Below are positions 10,335 through 18,433 of a DNA stretch of 64,000 bases, in pieces (position 1 is the stretch's first letter; every line of letters begins with the position of its first letter). Source of the stretch: Thermoanaerobaculia bacterium (lineage in GTDB: Bacteria; Acidobacteriota; Thermoanaerobaculia; Gp7-AA8); the NCBI GenBank assembly GCA_017883205.1, contig JADGNZ010000033.1, positions 3,595 through 67,594 of the forward strand. The letters are read 5' to 3'. The notes beneath the pieces are model-generated. The model saw nothing but the letters and a program-made list of their open reading frames with translations. It was not told the origin of the DNA and ran no database searches. The translations under genes were made by a program, and so were the position numbers.

Positions 10335-10343
10335 TGCTATCCT
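10335..10343 (+). promoter_or_regulatory. Putative extended -10 promoter of the trp operon leader
   Basis: TGc-TATCCT, 9 nt before the leader ATG at 10353. Confidence 0.45.
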
Positions 10344-10352
10344 CCGCCCGCC

Positions 10353-10421
10353 ATGAACTTCCCCGCGCATGAGGTCAACGAGTCGACGAGCTGTCCGGTC
10401 GACTCGTGTCTTTGGCTCTGA
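10353..10421 (+). CDS. Putative trp operon leader peptide (22 aa, MNFPAHEVNESTSCPVDSCLWL)
   Basis: Hand translation; single Trp at the penultimate codon; overlaps a perfect 10-bp stem acgagtcgac/gtcgactcgt; 83 nt upstream of trpG. Confidence 0.45.
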   Translation: MNFPAHEVNESTSCPVDSCLWL

Positions 10422-11077: not shown

Positions 11078-12090
11078 TCGACACCGCCATCCGCAAAGTC
11101 GTCGACGGCAAGGACCTCGGGCGCGACGAAATGCACGAGGTCTTCGGCGAAGTCATGGACGGCCGCGCCACCGATGTGCAGAAAAGTGCGCTGCTGATCG
11201 CGCTCCGAATGAAGGGCGAGACCTCCGAGGAGATCACCGGCGCCGCTCTGGCCATGCGCGAGCGCGTGAGCCCGCTGACCGTTGACCGCGAACGGATCAT
11301 CGATACCTGCGGCACCGGCGGCGACGGACGAGGCACGTTCAATGTCTCGACGATCGCAGCGCTCGTTGCGGCCGGCGCCGGCGCCTCGGTGGCGAAGCAC
11401 GGCAACCGCGCGGTGTCGTCGTCGTGTGGCAGCGCCGACGTCCTGGCCGAGCTTGGCGTGGCTATCGACCTCGACGCCGCTCGGATGAGCGAAGTGCTAA
11501 GCCGCACGGGTATCTCGTTTCTCTTCGCGCCGAAGCTGCACCCGGCGATGGGCGCGGTGGCAGGCATCCGGCGCGAGCTCGGCGTCCGCACGATCTTCAA
11601 CGTCCTCGGGCCATTGACGAACCCCGCGTTCGCGCGGCGGCAGGTGCTCGGCGTCTATTCGCTCCATCTCGTCGAGATTCTCGGCCGCGTGTTGCTGGCC
11701 CTCGGCGCGGAGCACGCGTTGGTCGTTCACAGCGCAGACGGGCTCGATGAGATTTCGATCTCCGCGGCGACGTACGTCTGCGAAGTGCGCGATGGCGATG
11801 TGCGCGGATTCGAGCTGACACCGGAAGAGATCGGAGCGGGACGTCATGTGATGGCGGAAATCTCCGGAGGCGACGCGCGAGAGAACGCACGGATCGCCCG
11901 TGAGGTCCTCGGCGGCGCGGACGGAGCACGCCACGAGATCGTTGCCGCGAATGCCGGAGCGGCCTTGTATGTGTCGGGCGCGGCCCCGACGATTCGCGAG
12001 GGCGTAGCGATGGCACGCGAATCGATCAGCAGCGGTCAGGCGATGACGAAGTTGCAGGAGTTGGTGGCGGTGACGAATGAGCTGGCGTAG
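11074..12090 (+). CDS. trpD: Anthranilate phosphoribosyltransferase
   Basis: DTCGTGGDG, FNVST, KHGNRAVSSSCGSADVL, RTIFNVLGPLTNP, GLDEIS; ATGA overlap with trpG. Confidence 0.95.
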   Translation: MIDTAIRKVVDGKDLGRDEMHEVFGEVMDGRATDVQKSALLIALRMKGETSEEITGAALAMRERVSPLTVDRERIIDTCGTGGDGRGTFNVSTIAALVAAGAGASVAKHGNRAVSSSCGSADVLAELGVAIDLDAARMSEVLSRTGISFLFAPKLHPAMGAVAGIRRELGVRTIFNVLGPLTNPAFARRQVLGVYSLHLVEILGRVLLALGAEHALVVHSADGLDEISISAATYVCEVRDGDVRGFELTPEEIGAGRHVMAEISGGDARENARIAREVLGGADGARHEIVAANAGAALYVSGAAPTIREGVAMARESISSGQAMTKLQELVAVTNELA

Positions 12091-12147
12091 ATCGGACACT
12101 CAGACTCTTTCCGCACGTCTTTCCAATCGAGCCTATCGCACGACTCT

Positions 12148-12367
12148 CCAATCGAGCGCCTTCTCCCCCACGCTTTTTGTGGGGGAGAAGGTGGCGAAGC
12201 CGGATGAGGGGGTGTTGCAAGAGAACCGCGTCAGCGCGTGTGGCAGGTTTTTGACATGGCTCGAACGACGCGTGATTGATCGCGCTGCGCATTTGCTCCC
12301 CCCTCATCCGTCCTTCGGCCACCTTCTCCCCCCGCAAAAAGCGCGGGGGGAGAAGGCGCTCGATTGG
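12148..12367. mobile_element. About 220-bp REP-doublet / MITE-like element, copy 1
   Basis: About 65-bp terminal inverted arms (ccaatcgagcgccttctcccccac...gggggagaaggtggcgaagccggatgagggg and its reverse complement), each with an internal hairpin; sits between trpD and trpC. Confidence 0.8.
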
Positions 12368-12447
12368 AAAGAGCTTCAAGAAAGAGGAAGAGCTGAAGCA
12401 AGCGGTGCACGGAGAGTGTGCGAACTGCCGGGACGGCGGCGTTTCGT

Positions 12448-13221
12448 ATGACCATCCTCGACGAGATCGTCTCGCGCACGCGCGCGCGCCTCGGCGGCGA
12501 AGCGCCGCCTGACCGCGCGGCGGCGGAGCGTGCCGCGCGGAACAGGCGCTCGTTCGCGTTGACGGAGGCCTTGAAGCGCGAAAGCGTCAACGTCATTGCC
12601 GAGATCAAGTCAGCGTCGCCTTCGGCCGGACCGATTGTCGAGAATCCGGATGTCGAAGGTATCGCGGCGGCGTACAAAGAAGGCGGTGCCGCTGCCATCT
12701 CCATCGTTACAGAGCCTGACTTCTTTCGCGGTTCCCGAGGATGGATCGAGCGGGCGGCGCGATCAAGCGGCCTTCCCGTGCTGATGAAAGACTTCATCGT
12801 CGATGAGTCGCAGCTCATTCGTGGCGTTGCCGCCGGCGCGAGCGCGATTCTGCTGCTGGCGTCGCTGCTCGATGCAACCCAGATTCGCGACTTCATCGCC
12901 TGCCTCGACGAGTTTTCCTGCGATGCCCTCGTCGAGGTGCACGACGAGGCTGAGCTGGCGCGGGCGGTGGGTGGGGGGGCCCGCATCATCGGCGTCAACA
13001 ACCGCAATCTGCGCGACTTTAGCGTCGACCTCGGCGCGTCGGAACGGCTGGCGCGGCAGATGCCGGAAGGCGCGCTACGCGTCGCCGAGAGCGGGATCAA
13101 AACGCGCGCCGACGTCGACCGGCTCCGCGCCGCCGGCTTCGATGCCTTTCTCGTCGGCGAATCGCTGTTGCGGCAGAATGACCGCGCCGCAGCGGTGCGG
13201 CAACTGGTGATGGCGCCATGA
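12448..13221 (+). CDS. trpC: Indole-3-glycerol phosphate synthase
   Basis: VIAEIKSASPSAG, ISIVTEPDFFRGS, PVLMKDFI, LVEVHDE, IGVNNRNL, VAESGI, FLVGESL. Confidence 0.95.
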   Translation: MTILDEIVSRTRARLGGEAPPDRAAAERAARNRRSFALTEALKRESVNVIAEIKSASPSAGPIVENPDVEGIAAAYKEGGAAAISIVTEPDFFRGSRGWIERAARSSGLPVLMKDFIVDESQLIRGVAAGASAILLLASLLDATQIRDFIACLDEFSCDALVEVHDEAELARAVGGGARIIGVNNRNLRDFSVDLGASERLARQMPEGALRVAESGIKTRADVDRLRAAGFDAFLVGESLLRQNDRAAAVRQLVMAP

Positions 13222-13835: not shown

Positions 13836-15049
13836 CTCGATCCGAGACGCGCCCGCGCGCGGGTTCACTACCCGACCGCCGCGGCTACTTTGGCGAGTTC
13901 GGCGGCCGCTACGTGCCCGAGACACTGATGGCGGCGCTCGACGAATTCGAAGCTGCGTATCGCAACCTTCGCCGCGACCGCGCGTTCCAAAGTGAGCTCG
14001 ATGATGTGCTGCGCGACTTCGTCGGGCGGCCTACGGCGCTCACCGAAGCGAAGCGGTTTGCCGAAGCGTGCGGCGGGATGCGGCTGTTTCTGAAACGCGA
14101 GGATCTTAATCACACCGGCGCGCACAAGATCAACAACGCCATCGGCCAGGCGCTCATCGCCAAACGGATGGGCAAGCAACGCATCATCGCCGAGACCGGC
14201 GCCGGACAGCACGGTGTTGCCACCGCCACGGCCTGCGCGCTCCTCGGCCTCGACTGCGTCGTCTACATGGGCGAGGTTGACATGGCCCGCCAGGAGCTCA
14301 ACGTCTTCCGCATGCGCCTCCTCGGCGCCGAAGTCGTTCCCGTTTCCAGCGGCAGCCGCACGCTGAAGGACGCGATCAATGAAGCGATCCGCGACTGGGT
14401 GACGAATGTCCGCACGACGCACTACATCATCGGCTCGGTCCTCGGGCCGCATCCCTACCCGCTGGTCGTGCGCGATTTTCAATCCGTGATCGGGCGCGAG
14501 GCGCTTGGCCAACTGAAGAAACGAACCGGTGCGGTTCCGGACGTCGCCGTCGCTTGCGTCGGCGGCGGATCGAACGCCATCGGTCTCTTCTACGAGATGC
14601 TGCAACACGATTCGATTCGCTTCATCGGCGTTGAAGCGGGAGGGCGCGGTCCAGCCCTCGGCCAGCACGCCGCACGATTCAGCGGCGGTGCCCTCGGCGT
14701 CCTTCACGGCACGCGGTCGATGGTGTTGCAGGACGAGTTCGGACAGATCGCAGAGACGCATTCGATCTCCGCTGGCCTCGATTACCCCTCCATCGGTCCC
14801 GAGCACGCCTATCTGCAGCAGATCGGCCGCATCGAATACTACGATTGCAGCGATGACCTCGCCCTCGAGGCGTTTCACAAACTGAGCGAGCTCGAAGGCA
14901 TCATCCCCGCCCTCGAATCCTCCCACGCCCTCGGCTGGCTCCTGCGCAACGGCGCTTCGATCGGCCGCGAGAAAATCGTGGTCGTGAACCTCAGCGGACG
15001 CGGCGACAAAGATGTGCCGCAGATCGCCGCGCTGGAGATGACGCGATGA
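13832..15049 (+). CDS. trpB: Tryptophan synthase beta chain
   Basis: [61 protein letters not shown]. Confidence 0.97.
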
Positions 15050-15144
15050 GCGGGAACGTGATGAGACGGAGCGCAATGAGAAGGAACCCTGCAAGCGCAA
15101 GCACGGCGCTGACGCTCACGGCTGTGCTGCTGGCGCAACCCCAA

Positions 15145-15369
15145 CAATCGAGCGCCCTTCTCCCCCGCGCTTTTCAGCGGGGGAGAAGGTGCCGAAGGCG
15201 GATGAGGGGGCTCTTCAGTAGACCCGGATGTGACACTACAAGCCCCTTTCGCTTGCCGGGAGCGAGCGCATCATCTAATGACAAGCGCCCCGCATTTGGA
15301 ACTACCCCCTCATCCGCCTTCGGCACCTTCTCCCCCACAAAAAGCGTGGGGGAGAAGGACGCTCGATTG
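15145..15369. mobile_element. About 220-bp REP-doublet / MITE-like element, copy 2
   Basis: Same inverted arms as copy 1 with a more divergent core; sits between trpB and trpA. Confidence 0.8.
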
Positions 15370-15431
15370 GGGAGTCTGTGGCAATTCAGCATTTCTCGCG
15401 CGAATGCGAAGCACCTTCTTGGGGTGGCCGC

Positions 15432-16241
15432 ATGAACCGAGTACGAAAACTCTTTACCCGTCTTCGTGCCGGACATCGCTGTGGATTGATCGCTTACGTC
15501 ACCTGCGGCGACGGTCCGACCGTCGAGATCGTTCACGCGCTGGAAGATGCGGGCGCGGATGCGATCGAGCTTGGTGTTCCCTTCTCTGATCCGATCGCCG
15601 ACGGCCCGGTCATCCAGATGGCCGCCCAGCGCGCGTTGAAGAACGGGACGAACATCGGCGACGTCTTCGCCATCGCGGACGAGGTCCGGACGCGCAGCGA
15701 TATTCCGTTGATTGCCTTCTCCTATCTGAATCCCGTTCTGCGATACGGCGTCGACAGATTCGCGGACGATGCCGCAACGGCCGGCATCGATTCGGTGCTT
15801 TTGACGGATCTGCCAACCGAAGCAGCGGCGGAGGTTAGACCGTCATTCAGAAAGCGCGGGTTGGGATCGATTTTCCTTCTCGCCCCGACTTCGAGCGACG
15901 CACGGATCGCGGCCGTGAATCGAGTCAGTGACGACTTCATCTACTACGTCTCGACGACGGGCGTCACCGGAACCCGCAACGAGCTCGATCCGACGCTTCT
16001 GACGCGTCTCGACGAGGTTCGTGCTCGCGTCACGAAGCCGCTTGCAGTCGGCTTTGGCATCTCGCAGCACGTTCATTACGAGTTGCTGCGCGATCACTGC
16101 GACGCCATCGTCGTCGGCAGCGCCATCGTACGCGCGGTTGCGAGCGGCGACGCTGCGGGAGCGCCGGGCCGCGCAGCCGCGGTCGTCAAAACGATTCTTG
16201 ACAGAGACGCGCCTGCGCCCTTACTCTCACCCGCCACATGA
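15432..16241 (+). CDS. trpA: Tryptophan synthase alpha chain
   Basis: IAYVTCGD, IELGVPFSDPIADGPVIQ, YLNP, FLLAPTS, YYVSTTGVTG, AVGFGIS, IVVGSAIV. Confidence 0.95.
   Translation: MNRVRKLFTRLRAGHRCGLIAYVTCGDGPTVEIVHALEDAGADAIELGVPFSDPIADGPVIQMAAQRALKNGTNIGDVFAIADEVRTRSDIPLIAFSYLNPVLRYGVDRFADDAATAGIDSVLLTDLPTEAAAEVRPSFRKRGLGSIFLLAPTSSDARIAAVNRVSDDFIYYVSTTGVTGTRNELDPTLLTRLDEVRARVTKPLAVGFGISQHVHYELLRDHCDAIVVGSAIVRAVASGDAAGAPGRAAAVVKTILDRDAPAPLLSPAT
16198..16227 (+). promoter_or_regulatory. Internal sigma70-type promoter inside the trpA 3' end
   Basis: TTGACA (16198-16203), 18-nt spacer, TACTCT (16222-16227), 10 nt before the leader ATG. Confidence 0.6.
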
Positions 16242-16288
16242 CCCGCACCGCCCAGCGTTTTGCGTATTACTACGGCTACTTTACGTAA
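16238..16288 (+). CDS. Tyr/Phe-rich attenuator leader peptide (MTRTAQRFAYYYGYFT)
   Basis: Hand translation: 4 Tyr + 2 Phe in the last 9 codons, directly upstream of chorismate mutase/aroF and a terminator. Confidence 0.85.
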   Translation: MTRTAQRFAYYYGYFT

Positions 16289-16343
16289 GCGTGGGGCATA
16301 TCGCGCCCCGCTACGGAGGGGTGCTGACCGCTGAGTCGATCCG

Positions 16344-16376
16344 AACCTCTTCCCGCGCGGCAAGAGGTTTTTTCTT
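16344..16376 (+). terminator. Attenuator terminator hairpin with U-tract
   Basis: aacctctt-cccgcgcggc-aagaggtt followed by ttttctt; the 3' arm contains the likely RBS (aagagg) of the next gene. Confidence 0.8.
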
Positions 16377-16670
16377 ATGGATCGAACGGACGCAGAACAA
16401 GAGCTCACCCGCCTTCGCGACGCCATCGACCGCGTCGACGAGGTCATCGTGCGCCTCCTCAATCAACGCGCGAAATACGCGATCGAGATCGGTGAGATCA
16501 AGGCCGTTCTCGATATGCCCATCTACGCCCCCGAGCGCGAGAAGCAGGTCCTCCTGCACGTCGAGCGCACCTCGGACGGCCCACTCGATCCAGCGACTGT
16601 GAGGCGTCTTTTTGAACGAATCATCGATGAATCGCGGCGCGTAGAGCGGCAGGCTACGAATCGCAGCTAG
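16377..16670 (+). CDS. Chorismate mutase (AroQ / type II)
   Basis: LTRLRDAIDRVDEVIVRLLNQRA...IGEIK...IYAPEREKQVL...LFERIIDESR. Confidence 0.9.
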   Translation: MDRTDAEQELTRLRDAIDRVDEVIVRLLNQRAKYAIEIGEIKAVLDMPIYAPEREKQVLLHVERTSDGPLDPATVRRLFERIIDESRRVERQATNRS

Positions 16671-16701
16671 ACATCAGGTAGACAGGGGCAGGGAGGATTT
16701 C

Positions 16702-17715
16702 ATGGTCATTGTGATGGAAAAACACGCGTCGGACACCGACATCGAGCACGTCGTTGCAGTGCTCAGCGAGCGCGGCTTCGACGTACATCGCTCCACCGGT
16801 GCGGACCAGACCGTCCTGGGCGTCGTCGGCGATGTTGCCAGCGTCGACCCGCGCGAGTTCGGGGTGCTGCACGGCGTTCAGGAAGCGGTCCGCGTCAGCG
16901 AGCCGTACAAGCTCTCCAGCCGCTCGTTCCGGCGCGAGAAAACGATCGTCAAGGCGCGCGGCGTCTCCATCGGCGGCAGCGACGTTGTGGTCATGGCTGG
17001 CCCATGTACGATCGAGAACGAACGGCAAATGTTCGAGACGGCGCGCCGCGTGGCCCGCGCCGGAGCGCGCGTACTGCGCGGCGGTGCGTACAAGCCGCGC
17101 ACTTCGCCGTACGCGTTTCAGGGAATGGGCATCGAAGGACTGAAACTTCTGCGCGCTGCCGGCGACGAGAACAACATGGCCACGATCTCCGAGGTCATGG
17201 AGATCAGCCAGATCGAAGCGATGCTCGATTATGTGGACATCCTGCAGGTCGGCGCGCGCAACATGCAGAACTACAACCTGTTGTCGGCCCTTGGCCAGAT
17301 CCGCAAGCCGGTGCTCCTCAAGCGCGGCATGTCCGCCACGATTCAGGAATGGCTGCTGGCGTCGGAGTACATCCTCTCCGGCGGCAACTACGACGTCATC
17401 CTCTGCGAGCGCGGCATCCGCACCTTCGAGACCTACACGCGCAACACCCTCGACATCTCAGCCATCCCGGTCATCAACAAACTCTCGCACCTGCCGATCA
17501 TCGCCGACCCCTCGCACGCCGTCGGCCGCCGCGACAAAGTGATGCCCCTGGCCCGCGCCATCGTCGCCGCCGGTGCGGACGGCGTCCTGATCGAGGTCCA
17601 TCACGAGCCAGAAAAAGCCGTCTGCGACGGCCCCCAATCGCTCTACCCCGACCAGTTCGCAAGACTGATGGACGAACTGCGGATCATCGTCCCGGCAGTG
17701 GGGCGGACATTGTGA
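16702..17715 (+). CDS. aroF: DAHP synthase (class I-beta, N-terminal regulatory domain)
   Basis: MAGPCTIE, LRGGAYKPRTSPYAFQG, QVGARNMQN, LLKRG, LCERGIRTFE, DPSHA, IEVH. Confidence 0.95.
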   Translation: MVIVMEKHASDTDIEHVVAVLSERGFDVHRSTGADQTVLGVVGDVASVDPREFGVLHGVQEAVRVSEPYKLSSRSFRREKTIVKARGVSIGGSDVVVMAGPCTIENERQMFETARRVARAGARVLRGGAYKPRTSPYAFQGMGIEGLKLLRAAGDENNMATISEVMEISQIEAMLDYVDILQVGARNMQNYNLLSALGQIRKPVLLKRGMSATIQEWLLASEYILSGGNYDVILCERGIRTFETYTRNTLDISAIPVINKLSHLPIIADPSHAVGRRDKVMPLARAIVAAGADGVLIEVHHEPEKAVCDGPQSLYPDQFARLMDELRIIVPAVGRTL

Positions 17716-17848
17716 TGGGGGAGTCAGCGTAGCGCGAGCGAACGTAGCGCCGGCGGCTCGCCGGCTGGTCCGCCGCCGGCCCGGCGGCATTGCCATTCAG
17801 CGGAGGTCGAAGGATCACAGCGCCGGCTGCGCCCGCAACCCAAAATGA

Positions 17849-17876
17849 CCCGGGCGCGCCTGCGAGCGCGCCCGGG
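17849..17876 (-). terminator. GC-rich hairpin downstream of cassette A gene
   Basis: 11-bp stem cccgggcgcgc/gcgcgcccggg, followed on - by tcatttt; stem nearly identical to 29089-29118. Confidence 0.65.
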
Positions 17877-17893
17877 CCACAGACTCCTCTACT

Positions 17894-18433
17894 CTACGCT
17901 TTCGGTGCCGTGGACGTGTCGTGGGTTGGTGGCGGCGTCGCTGGAGGGGCCTGCGTCGTCTTCTTGCGGCGCGCGGCGCCTTTCAGCCGTTTGACCTCCT
18001 CGACGTGCGGCACGAGCACCGCCCTTGCCGGGTCCTTGGCGAGCTGCGACCCGATCGTGTACGCCTGCATGGCGATGAGCCCGAGCCGTTGACGGCGAAT
18101 GAGGTTTGCGCCCTCGAGGCCATTCAGGAACGCGCGCGCCTCATCGACCGCGGCGTCCCAGCGGAGCGAGTCGTCCTGCAACTGACGGACTTCGTCGAGC
18201 GGCTGCCCGATCGCCTCCGATACGTTGTCGAGCACGCCGATGACGTTGATCGATGCCTCGACGATGGTCTTCGGCTGTCTCCGGAGACGCTTTTTGAGCA
18301 GCTTGCGCTGCTCCTTCGACAACGGCGCGAGGTCGTCGATCTGCGACCCGATGGCGCGCAACTGCGCGATGACCGCTTCGGGGGCCATCCTGGCCGGATC
18401 AGGGTTTGATGGAACAGGGGTGGTATTACTCAT
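17894..18433 (-). CDS. Hypothetical alpha-helical protein, cassette A (paralog of 28533-29057)
   Basis: RBS agggag upstream; shares PEA-x4-LRA-x3-QI, IN-x-IG, RW, ANL-x-RR-x-RLG, AY and L-x-PH with the paralog; basic then Pro-rich tail. Confidence 0.8.
   Translation of the reverse strand: MSNTTPVPSNPDPARMAPEAVIAQLRAIGSQIDDLAPLSKEQRKLLKKRLRRQPKTIVEASINVIGVLDNVSEAIGQPLDEVRQLQDDSLRWDAAVDEARAFLNGLEGANLIRRQRLGLIAMQAYTIGSQLAKDPARAVLVPHVEEVKRLKGAARRKKTTQAPPATPPPTHDTSTAPKA

Follow-up and report, generated by a model that had tools for sequence, protein, structure and literature searches.

The trpA-chorismate mutase junction

We analysed a 64,000-nucleotide stretch of DNA from a Thermoanaerobaculia bacterium (the window) in which six tryptophan genes, trpG, D, C, F, B and A (Pfam assignments), lie 5' of the genes for chorismate mutase (CM) and DAHP synthase. 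The short region between trpA and the CM gene contains a putative promoter, a small open reading frame (ORF) rich in tyrosine and phenylalanine codons, a series of alternative hairpins and a predicted intrinsic terminator (Table 1). Judged by sequence comparison, this region is very probably a real and conserved ribosome-mediated (leader-peptide) transcription attenuator of CM and DAHP synthase with a Tyr-dominated leader. An earlier note on this DNA had recognized the layout of such a device. It named a promoter TTGACA-18-TACTCT inside trpA, a Tyr/Phe ORF overlapping the trpA stop codon, a GGGGC/GCCCC hairpin directly after the leader stop, a GGAGGGG motif complementary to the 5' arm of a terminator, and a U-tract terminator that would also hide the CM ribosome-binding site. 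All of these elements could be read at the locus, together with one helix that the note had missed and that the logic of the switch needs (helix 2:3, below).

The ATG of the leader and the TGA of trpA (16239-16241) overlap as ATGA. Six of the 16 leader codons specify Tyr or Phe (4 Tyr, 2 Phe), namely Phe at 16259-61, three consecutive Tyr codons, TAT TAC TAC, at 16265-73, Tyr at 16277-79 and Phe at 16280-82, and the ORF lies upstream of the CM-DAHP synthase pair. The background in the long ORFs of the genome is 2.1% for Tyr and 3.7% for Phe. A content of at least 4 Tyr or at least 6 aromatic residues was found in 20 of 29,830 six-frame ATG ORFs of 10-22 codons. Such a composition is rare yet not unique, and the argument therefore rests on conservation.

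The promoter motif recurs with the leader. TTGACA (with at most 2 mismatches), a spacer of 16-19 nt and TAnnnT were present in 61 of the 72 members of the RNA family described below, and in 56 of these 61 the -10 element ends 7-13 nt before the leader start (10 nt in the window copy). A Shine-Dalgarno-like motif 5' of the leader start was found in none of the 72 members. This spacing and the lack of a Shine-Dalgarno sequence suggest that the leader ORFs are probably leaderless or nearly so.

Table 1. Features of the junction between trpA and the DAHP synthase gene, in window positions
Feature	Position	Strand	Remarks
trpA	15378..16241	+	Pfam Trp_syntA; final gene of trpG-D-C-F-B-A; stop overlaps leader start
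Putative promoter: -35 TTGACA 16198-16203, 18-nt spacer, -10 TACTCT 16222-16227	16198..16227	+	From sequence; inside the last trpA codons
Leader ORF MTRTAQRFAYYYGYFT + TAA, 16 codons	16238..16288	+	From sequence; ATG 16238, TAA 16286-16288
Segment 0 (A), inside leader ORF	16250..16266	+	Pairs with 16282-16297 (ORF end and segment 1) in the ribosome-free minimum free energy (MFE) structure
Segment 1 (B), GTGGGGC	16291..16297	+	3-9 nt after the stop; helix 1:2 with 16305-16311, anti-anti-antiterminator
Segment 2 (C), GCGCCCCGC	16303..16311	+	Common to helix 1:2 (16305-11) and helix 2:3 (16303-09)
Segment 3 (D), ACGGAGGGGTGC	16313..16324	+	16318-24 pairs with segment 2 (anti-antiterminator); 16315-21 pairs with 16346-52 (antiterminator)
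Variable spacer, small hairpin TGAC 16325-28 with GTCG 16335-38	16325..16345	+	Enclosed by helix 3:4; sequence not conserved
Predicted intrinsic terminator: segment 4 (E) CCTCTTCCC 16346-54, loop, segment 5 (F) GGCAAGAGG 16359-67, T6 16368-73	16346..16373	+	
CM Shine-Dalgarno AAGAGG, 9 nt before ATG 16377	16362..16367	+	Inside terminator 3' arm
Chorismate mutase (CM), AroQ type, 97 aa	16377..16670	+	Pfam CM_2, 1.6e-24
DAHP synthase type I-beta, N-terminal ferredoxin-like regulatory domain	16702..17715	+	Pfam DAHP_synth_1 1.1e-79, DAHP_snth_FXD 1.5e-19

Alternative structures and the proposed switch

The six segments can pair in two ways, 0:1, 2:3 and 4:5 against 1:2 and 3:4, which is the his-type topology. 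The hairpin that follows the leader stop, GGGGC (16293-16297) with GCCCC (16305-16309), extends to 7 bp (16291-16297/16305-16311) at -13.0 kcal/mol. Helix 2:3, GCGCCCC (16303-16309) with GGGGTGC (16318-16324), has -15.9 kcal/mol. The antiterminator strand GGAGGGG finds its best register within the terminator 5' arm at 16346-52, forming 7 bp that include 2 G-U pairs (-12.1 kcal/mol with the spacer), and this pairing excludes the terminator. The terminator stem, located between the leader ORF and CM, has -11.4 kcal/mol and is followed directly by T6. Folding of the alternative structures, which the earlier note had suggested as a check, thus gave four local helices of comparable energy. The family medians are -13.0 (1:2), -16.4 (2:3), -15.2 (3:4) and -17.4 kcal/mol (4:5). 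The 1:2 hairpin reaches -5 kcal/mol or better in 68/72 members, and the leader stop codon lies 11-18 nt before segment 2 in 63/72. The AAGAGG in the terminator 3' arm is the sole Shine-Dalgarno-like element listed between the leader and CM, and AAGAGG or AAGGGG is conserved at this position across the RNA family; it would act in CM translation and be hidden when the terminator forms.

We propose that the device would work as follows. Transcription would start a few bases before the leader ATG, from the promoter in the 3' end of trpA, with trp operon transcripts also entering the region, and a ribosome would translate the leader. If Tyr and Phe are both plentiful, the ribosome would proceed to ACG-TAA (16283-16288) and cover segment 1; segment 2 would then pair with segment 3, leaving segment 4 to build the terminator with segment 5. 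In this terminated state transcription would stop at about 16373 and the CM Shine-Dalgarno would be buried in the stem. If Tyr or Phe is scarce, the ribosome would stall within 16259-16282, chiefly at TAT-TAC-TAC. Segment 1 would then be free to pair with segment 2, and the released segment 3 would pair with segment 4 once it is made. No terminator would form in this antiterminated state, CM and DAHP synthase would be transcribed, and the Shine-Dalgarno would be exposed. On a leader without a ribosome, segment 0 would sequester segment 1, making termination the default. The device would accordingly read the charging of tRNA-Tyr and, secondarily, of tRNA-Phe. In this scheme we infer leaderless initiation, the stall positions, termination and the effective amino acid.

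Because equilibrium folding of the full transcript cannot decide such a switch, we used a footprint model in which the transcript is cut at the end of segment 4, the ribosome is masked to the A site plus 12 nt, and the rest is folded at equilibrium. The window sequence behaved as expected for a switch: with the A site at any of codons 2-15 it gave helix 1:2 and the antiterminator, and with the A site at the last sense codon or the stop, or with no ribosome, it gave helix 2:3. The result held for masks of +11 to +15 at the leader 3' end; at +9 the last sense codon still gave the antiterminator. Among the 25 members of the CM class, a ribosome at the stop gave helix 2:3 in 22 and a ribosome at a Tyr, Phe or Trp codon gave the antiterminator in 21, with both outcomes in 18.

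Expression data came from two metatranscriptome runs containing 6-7% of the words, with contigs from relatives that are mostly 90-95% alike. RNA-library contigs from close relatives run from the leader across the terminator into CM (16254-16576 and 16273-16628); such contigs show no starts, ends or levels, and the missing cover over trpA (15600-16209) is not usable. The contigs that cross the terminator are weak evidence, compatible with readthrough transcripts.

Covariation of the alternative folds

Covariation was measured on the model-based alignment A4 with 500 shuffles. In the terminated fold (2:3 plus 4:5), 96.9% of cells were paired, a figure that leans towards this fold because A4 was fitted to it, and 11 of 16 pairs had changed on both sides, as high as in none of the 500 shuffles. 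Helix 4:5 alone was paired in 95.9% of cells, with both sides changed in 7 of 9 pairs. The antiterminator 3:4, which is absent from the model, was paired in 89.6% of cells, compared with 49-76% when the partner was slid along. It showed 25 double-change cells against 12.5 +/- 3.1 in the shuffles (0/500 as high), and one of its positions alternates between G-C (22), A-U (16) and G-U (8). The covariation therefore supports both the predicted terminated fold and the predicted antiterminator.

Conservation of the Tyr/Phe unit and its relation to trpA

We retrieved 80 loci with the DAHP synthase as query. A Tyr/Phe-rich ORF of 12-17 aa lies 87-155 nt before CM in all 14 Thermoanaerobaculia loci that have CM, and in all 14 it is followed by the same hairpin segments and a T-run. 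The complete layout of ribosome-mediated attenuation, with Tyr/Phe upstream ORF (uORF), alternative hairpins and terminator, was thus conserved in 14/14 close loci, and also in 25/25 CM-linked matches of the covariance model described below. An aromatic-rich uORF together with a T-run was found in 0 of 59 loci of Terriglobia and others with a CM-DAHP synthase pair. The suggestion of the earlier note that Y/F-rich uORFs should be sought before CM-aroF in Acidobacteriota was therefore borne out for Thermoanaerobaculia and not for Terriglobia and the others. In a distant Thermoanaerobaculia locus (L015), trpA is followed directly by the DAHP synthase gene, with no CM and no leader. The orthologous leaders interchange TAT and TAC for Tyr, and single-base changes turn Tyr into Phe or the reverse; they differ in length by whole numbers of codons, and the position of the stop with respect to the RNA body is fixed.

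The position of the element directly 3' of trpA, and a promoter and terminator scan that came up empty here, would also fit a plain trp operon terminator followed by a promoterless CM gene, with the small ORF arising by chance. We consider this extremely improbable, and the comparative data already contradict it. Conservation extends to the ORF, to its aromatic codons and to the place of its stop, and the terminator lies downstream of a promoter of its own. Moreover, trpA was absent from the upstream DNA examined in 19 of the 25 orthologous units (roughly 1.46 kb in 17 units, but just 211 bases in L256 and 226 in L251), suggesting that the attenuator is an autonomous unit and not an appendage of trpA. 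Where trpA is upstream (6/25), its stop overlaps the leader start as ATGA in 4 units, including the window; the ATGA start context itself is present in 22/25 units regardless of trpA. The earlier note had raised coupling to trpA translation. The overlap is there in the window, and in this genus the leader may be coupled to trpA termination; with so few units behind trpA, however, such coupling does not belong to the device itself.

The gene order trpA-CM-DAHP synthase is itself widespread in Terriglobia and other Acidobacteriota (L016-L080), without leader or terminator between trpA and CM, and on this distribution the shared gene order either predates the attenuator or extends beyond it. Two ORFs with WWW in this set (L027, L076) were rejected as leaders, being a conserved trpA motif read out of frame. 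In one unit (L218:1609-1926, G135) the first ORF after the Tyr/Phe leader matches positions 1-33 of the CM_2 profile and then DAHP_synth_1, and the contig ends soon after; this ORF may be a CM-DAHP synthase fusion or a deletion. A 2.5-kb contig in a bin labelled Rhodanobacteraceae (L100) is probably mis-binned; its Tyr/Phe attenuator, MNQNAPSYAYYYGYVT, is of the typical kind and almost the same as those of Thermoanaerobaculia.

One RNA body behind three kinds of leader

A pattern made from the conserved segments first revealed the RNA body elsewhere in the same genomes, behind leaders with His runs or Trp-Trp. A covariance model, R1, built from 43 sequences, gave three strong matches in the window's own genome, of the Tyr/Phe, His and Trp types. 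The His copy (L202:1501-1611, minus strand, = G000:C28:69496-69606; L277) has the leaderless-looking leader MSTNFVQQHHHHHI, followed by hisZ-hisG-hisD and further his genes (Pfam). The Trp copy (L203:1501-1617, plus strand, = G000:C54:54127-54243; L276) has the leader MNASRTSWWFLRS before an aroD/aroE fusion (Pfam DHquinase_I and Shikimate_dh_N) and then trpE (Chorismate_bind and Anth_synt_I_N), and would place a Trp sensor on common-pathway genes and trpE, apart from trpGDCFBA.

The analysed set comprised the 72 best full-length sense matches, from 39 genomes; five weak matches (G110, G043:C100, G135:C172, G111:C70, G078) and two matches in the unpublished G131 genome were left out. For two copies (L254, L275) the examined DNA held no downstream ORF. 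Among the remaining 70, the downstream ORF was CM_2 in 25, HisZ-like tRNA-synt_His in 28 and DHquinase_I plus Shikimate_dh_N in 16, and the ORF picked for the last one (L258) had no Pfam family. All 25 CM leaders were rich in Tyr and Phe, with 2-6 Tyr each and 97 Tyr and 39 Phe among 388 residues, so that the Tyr dominance seen in the earlier note extends to the orthologues. All 28 HisZ leaders were rich in His (185 of 468 residues), and 13 of the 16 AroD/E leaders contained WW or WWW, the leader being unassigned in the other three (L263, L268, L272). The leader codons therefore agreed with the downstream pathway in 66/70 loci. Such agreement is predicted by sensing through the ribosome and not by a riboswitch or a plain terminator, and it is, among these sequence data, the strongest evidence for the ribosome as the sensor.

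R1 matches were found in 40 of 151 Thermoanaerobaculia genomes (family f1 35/35, or 34/34 without G131; f2 1/1; f7 2/20; f17 1/1; the other 13 families 0). In a phylum-wide set, 9 of 151 genomes had a match, six of them in f1 or f2 (the window genome counted) and three weak, at 26-29 bits. By these counts the RNA is essentially confined to one family, f1.

Across the three operons the RNA body has 28 invariant columns in A1 and 20 in A2. Invariance this striking raises the question of whether a protein or small ligand binds the conserved body (GAAGGGGCGC, CCTCTTC), with the uORF being incidental or modulatory. We regard such a regulator as very unlikely, because a single common body cannot specify three amino-acid pathways, as the leaders do, and because the invariance is explained by terminator arms resembling Shine-Dalgarno and anti-Shine-Dalgarno sequences and by two pairing partners for each segment. 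An Rfam cmscan of 15000-18000 at E <=10 gave three unrelated weak matches, none within 16198-16376, which places the element outside the curated Rfam families of leaders (His_leader, Trp_leader, Phe_leader, Thr_leader, Leu_leader), T-boxes and riboswitches.

A broader interpretation, to which we give not quite an even chance, is that a single plug-in attenuator chassis serves one Thermoanaerobaculia family. It would consist of a near-invariant five-hairpin body, a terminator arm that doubles as the Shine-Dalgarno sequence for joint transcriptional and translational control, and a leaderless mini-ORF with swapped codons (Tyr/Phe before CM-DAHP synthase, His before hisZGD and Trp before aroD/E-trpE), with tyrosyl-tRNA charging as the primary signal of the Tyr/Phe copy. 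The common aromatic pathway would then answer to two ribosome sensors, the Tyr/Phe copy and the Trp copy, each controlling a part of it.

Some further matches stand apart from this set. A leader of mixed His/Trp type, MTNALASRHHHGWWHHLS, precedes AroD/E in L225/L081. About half of the 80 loci from the pattern scan were chance matches, judged by eye from motifs without Rfam or Pfam, among them SAM-riboswitch-like leaders before a threonine-synthase-like gene (L083, L088, L133) and leaders before a PyrR-like gene (L102, L143, L146). A further, weak match in the window's own genome (C100:84123-84277, E = 0.65) follows an unrelated ORF and has the appearance of an ordinary terminator.

Termination or masking of the Shine-Dalgarno sequence

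The Shine-Dalgarno sequence lies in the terminator 3' arm not only in the window but throughout the family, as would be expected if the leader and hairpins acted mainly on translation, with helix 4:5 hiding the CM Shine-Dalgarno and termination playing a minor part. Four Trp-type copies (L261, L264, L271, L274) have a decayed U-tract (ATCCTTGT, TCTTGTTG, TTTCGTTG and CTAACGTT) and have kept the 4:5 hairpin; in them, masking of the Shine-Dalgarno may take the place of termination. Mainly translational control nevertheless seems unlikely to us. In the window a GC-rich stem runs straight into an unbroken T6, a T-run is not needed for masking, and a run of at least 4 T follows the stem in most of the 72 members (read by eye). 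The two modes are compatible, and the difference between them is a matter of degree.

Evidence against attenuation, and the effective amino acid

Several results weigh against a Tyr-dominated transcription attenuator at this locus. A simple consensus promoter scan listed no promoter at 16198-16227, where TACTCT agrees with TATAAT in 3/6 positions, and a simple terminator scan reported five terminators, 16346-16373 not among them. We did not take these misses as evidence against the elements, because the -10 has the form TAnnCT and the terminator stem has an internal mismatch. The folding energy of the whole 171-nt region was ordinary (z = -1.38, with 19/200 shuffles as stable). In the full transcript the terminator belonged to the MFE structure in every case, including a stalled ribosome, so that kinetics must decide between the folds, as they do in classical attenuators. 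The footprint model failed in 7 of the 25 CM-class members, of which three never left helix 2:3 and others never left the antiterminator. Support from alignment columns was moderate for helices 0:1 and 1:2. Helix 0:1 was paired in 67% of cells in 24 Tyr/Phe-type sequences, against 59.3 +/- 1.4 in shuffles, with 10/15 pairs changed on both sides; helix 1:2 was paired in 73% of cells, a count weakened by MAFFT shifting segment 1 and leaving a poor register there. Finally, the score used to choose a leader ORF at each locus gives preference to ORFs enriched in a single residue; this bias is limited by the requirement that the stop fall in a narrow window, which fixed the frame.

The identity of the signal met a further objection. 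In Corynebacterium glutamicum, the aroR leader (Phe-Tyr-Phe) precedes the aroF (DAHP synthase) operon (Neshat et al. 2014 as cited in PMC11802643), and the excerpts of PMC11802643 report that Phe limitation is effective and Tyr availability is without effect. Tyr codons therefore need not mean Tyr sensing, and the attenuator could be real and yet answer to Phe only, or to a general slowdown of translation, with the Tyr codons not limiting in vivo. Both Phe codons of the window leader are the rarer TTT (22% of Phe codons genome-wide), and TTT accounts for 20/38 in leaders of the Tyr/Phe type, as a Phe signal might favour. However, Tyr is enriched about 12-fold over background and Phe about 2.7-fold, 2-6 Tyr are present in each of 24 distinct leaders, and TAT-TAC-TAC is placed where, in the footprint model, a stall best frees segment 1. 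A signal without Tyr is thus rather improbable in our judgement, and we favour a response to Tyr with Phe as a secondary signal.

Relation to known systems

Leader-peptide attenuation is textbook knowledge in Proteobacteria and Actinobacteria. The hisL attenuator has six segments, which pair as A:B, C:D and E:F in the terminated state and as B:C and D:E in the antiterminated state, with termination as the default without translation. The Tyr/Phe element resembles this his attenuator of Salmonella and E. coli (Rfam His_leader RF00514) in its run of regulatory codons and its six alternating segments. Unlike hisL, it has Tyr/Phe codons, CM and DAHP synthase as its targets, no Shine-Dalgarno for the leader, an Acidobacteriota host and no Rfam leader match. 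The pheL-pheA attenuator has the classical four-segment layout, and pheL differs from the leader described here in containing runs of Phe only and in being gammaproteobacterial.

The following comparisons rest on excerpts of the cited papers. In E. coli, the pheA chorismate mutase gene is under transcription attenuation with a Phe-only leader (PMC3082878), so that the two systems share an aromatic-codon leader before a chorismate mutase gene. Compared by description only, aroR is alike in being a leader-peptide attenuator with Phe and Tyr codons on a DAHP synthase operon (PMC11802643). It differs from the window element, which has 4 Tyr and 2 Phe, is Tyr-dominated over 24 orthologues, has CM as the first gene and belongs to another phylum. 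Mycobacteria have leaderless polycysteine uORF attenuators (bioRxiv 10.1101/834739), which share with our leader a sensing uORF at or next to the transcript 5' end (here a prediction) and the lack of a Shine-Dalgarno sequence, but which use cysteine codons and belong to Actinobacteria. In Bacilli, a His leader precedes hisZ and hisS paralogues (Naville & Gautheret 2010, PMC2965389); by its description it is a counterpart of the His sister copy and not of the Tyr/Phe copy. The same paper notes that a function had been assigned to almost none of the predicted Acidobacteria attenuators.

Our literature search, which covered papers outside subscription, found no attenuator with tyrosyl-tRNA charging as its primary signal and, as judged from titles and the starts of abstracts, nothing on Thermoanaerobaculia attenuators. 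The Tyr/Phe attenuator would thus be a known type of device in a phylum and with a specificity for which we found no description.

The regulated enzyme points to the same end products. The DAHP synthase matches PDB 1rzm/3pg9 over its full length (1.8e-103), and in Thermotoga maritima the ferredoxin-like domain of DAHP synthase binds Phe or Tyr, closing the active site (PMC5526877, in excerpt). With a domain of this type on the regulated enzyme, the enzyme and the leader would read identical end products.

Three sensors on a single chassis would amount to a regulatory map of aromatic and histidine biosynthesis for an uncultured soil lineage, and the 72 aligned examples with their covariance model could be used to annotate such loci. 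Whether Tyr codons can drive attenuation could be asked cleanly of the natural Tyr/Phe copy; in aroR, the one Phe/Tyr leader known to us to have been studied, they reportedly did not. The chassis would also be a small synthetic part, retargetable through a few codon swaps.

Other features of the trp operon

Two ORFs on the plus strand without a Pfam match fill gaps between trp genes: one of 124 aa (12077-12451) between trpD and trpC, and one of 129 aa (15046-15435) between trpB and trpA. They may be small proteins, or artefacts of GC-rich sequence or mis-set starts. Before trpG (ATG 10505), a TATCCT motif (10338-43) lies 9 nt 5' of an ATG at 10353, which opens a 22-codon ORF, MNFPAHEVNESTSCPVDSCLWL, with a single Trp codon close to its end. 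The same region (10338-10421) contains a perfect 8-bp hairpin, GAGTCGAC (10380-87) with GTCGACTC (10398-10405), and has no T-run and no match to model R1. The ORF and hairpin may be another kind of leader, for trpGDCFBA, or may have arisen by chance.

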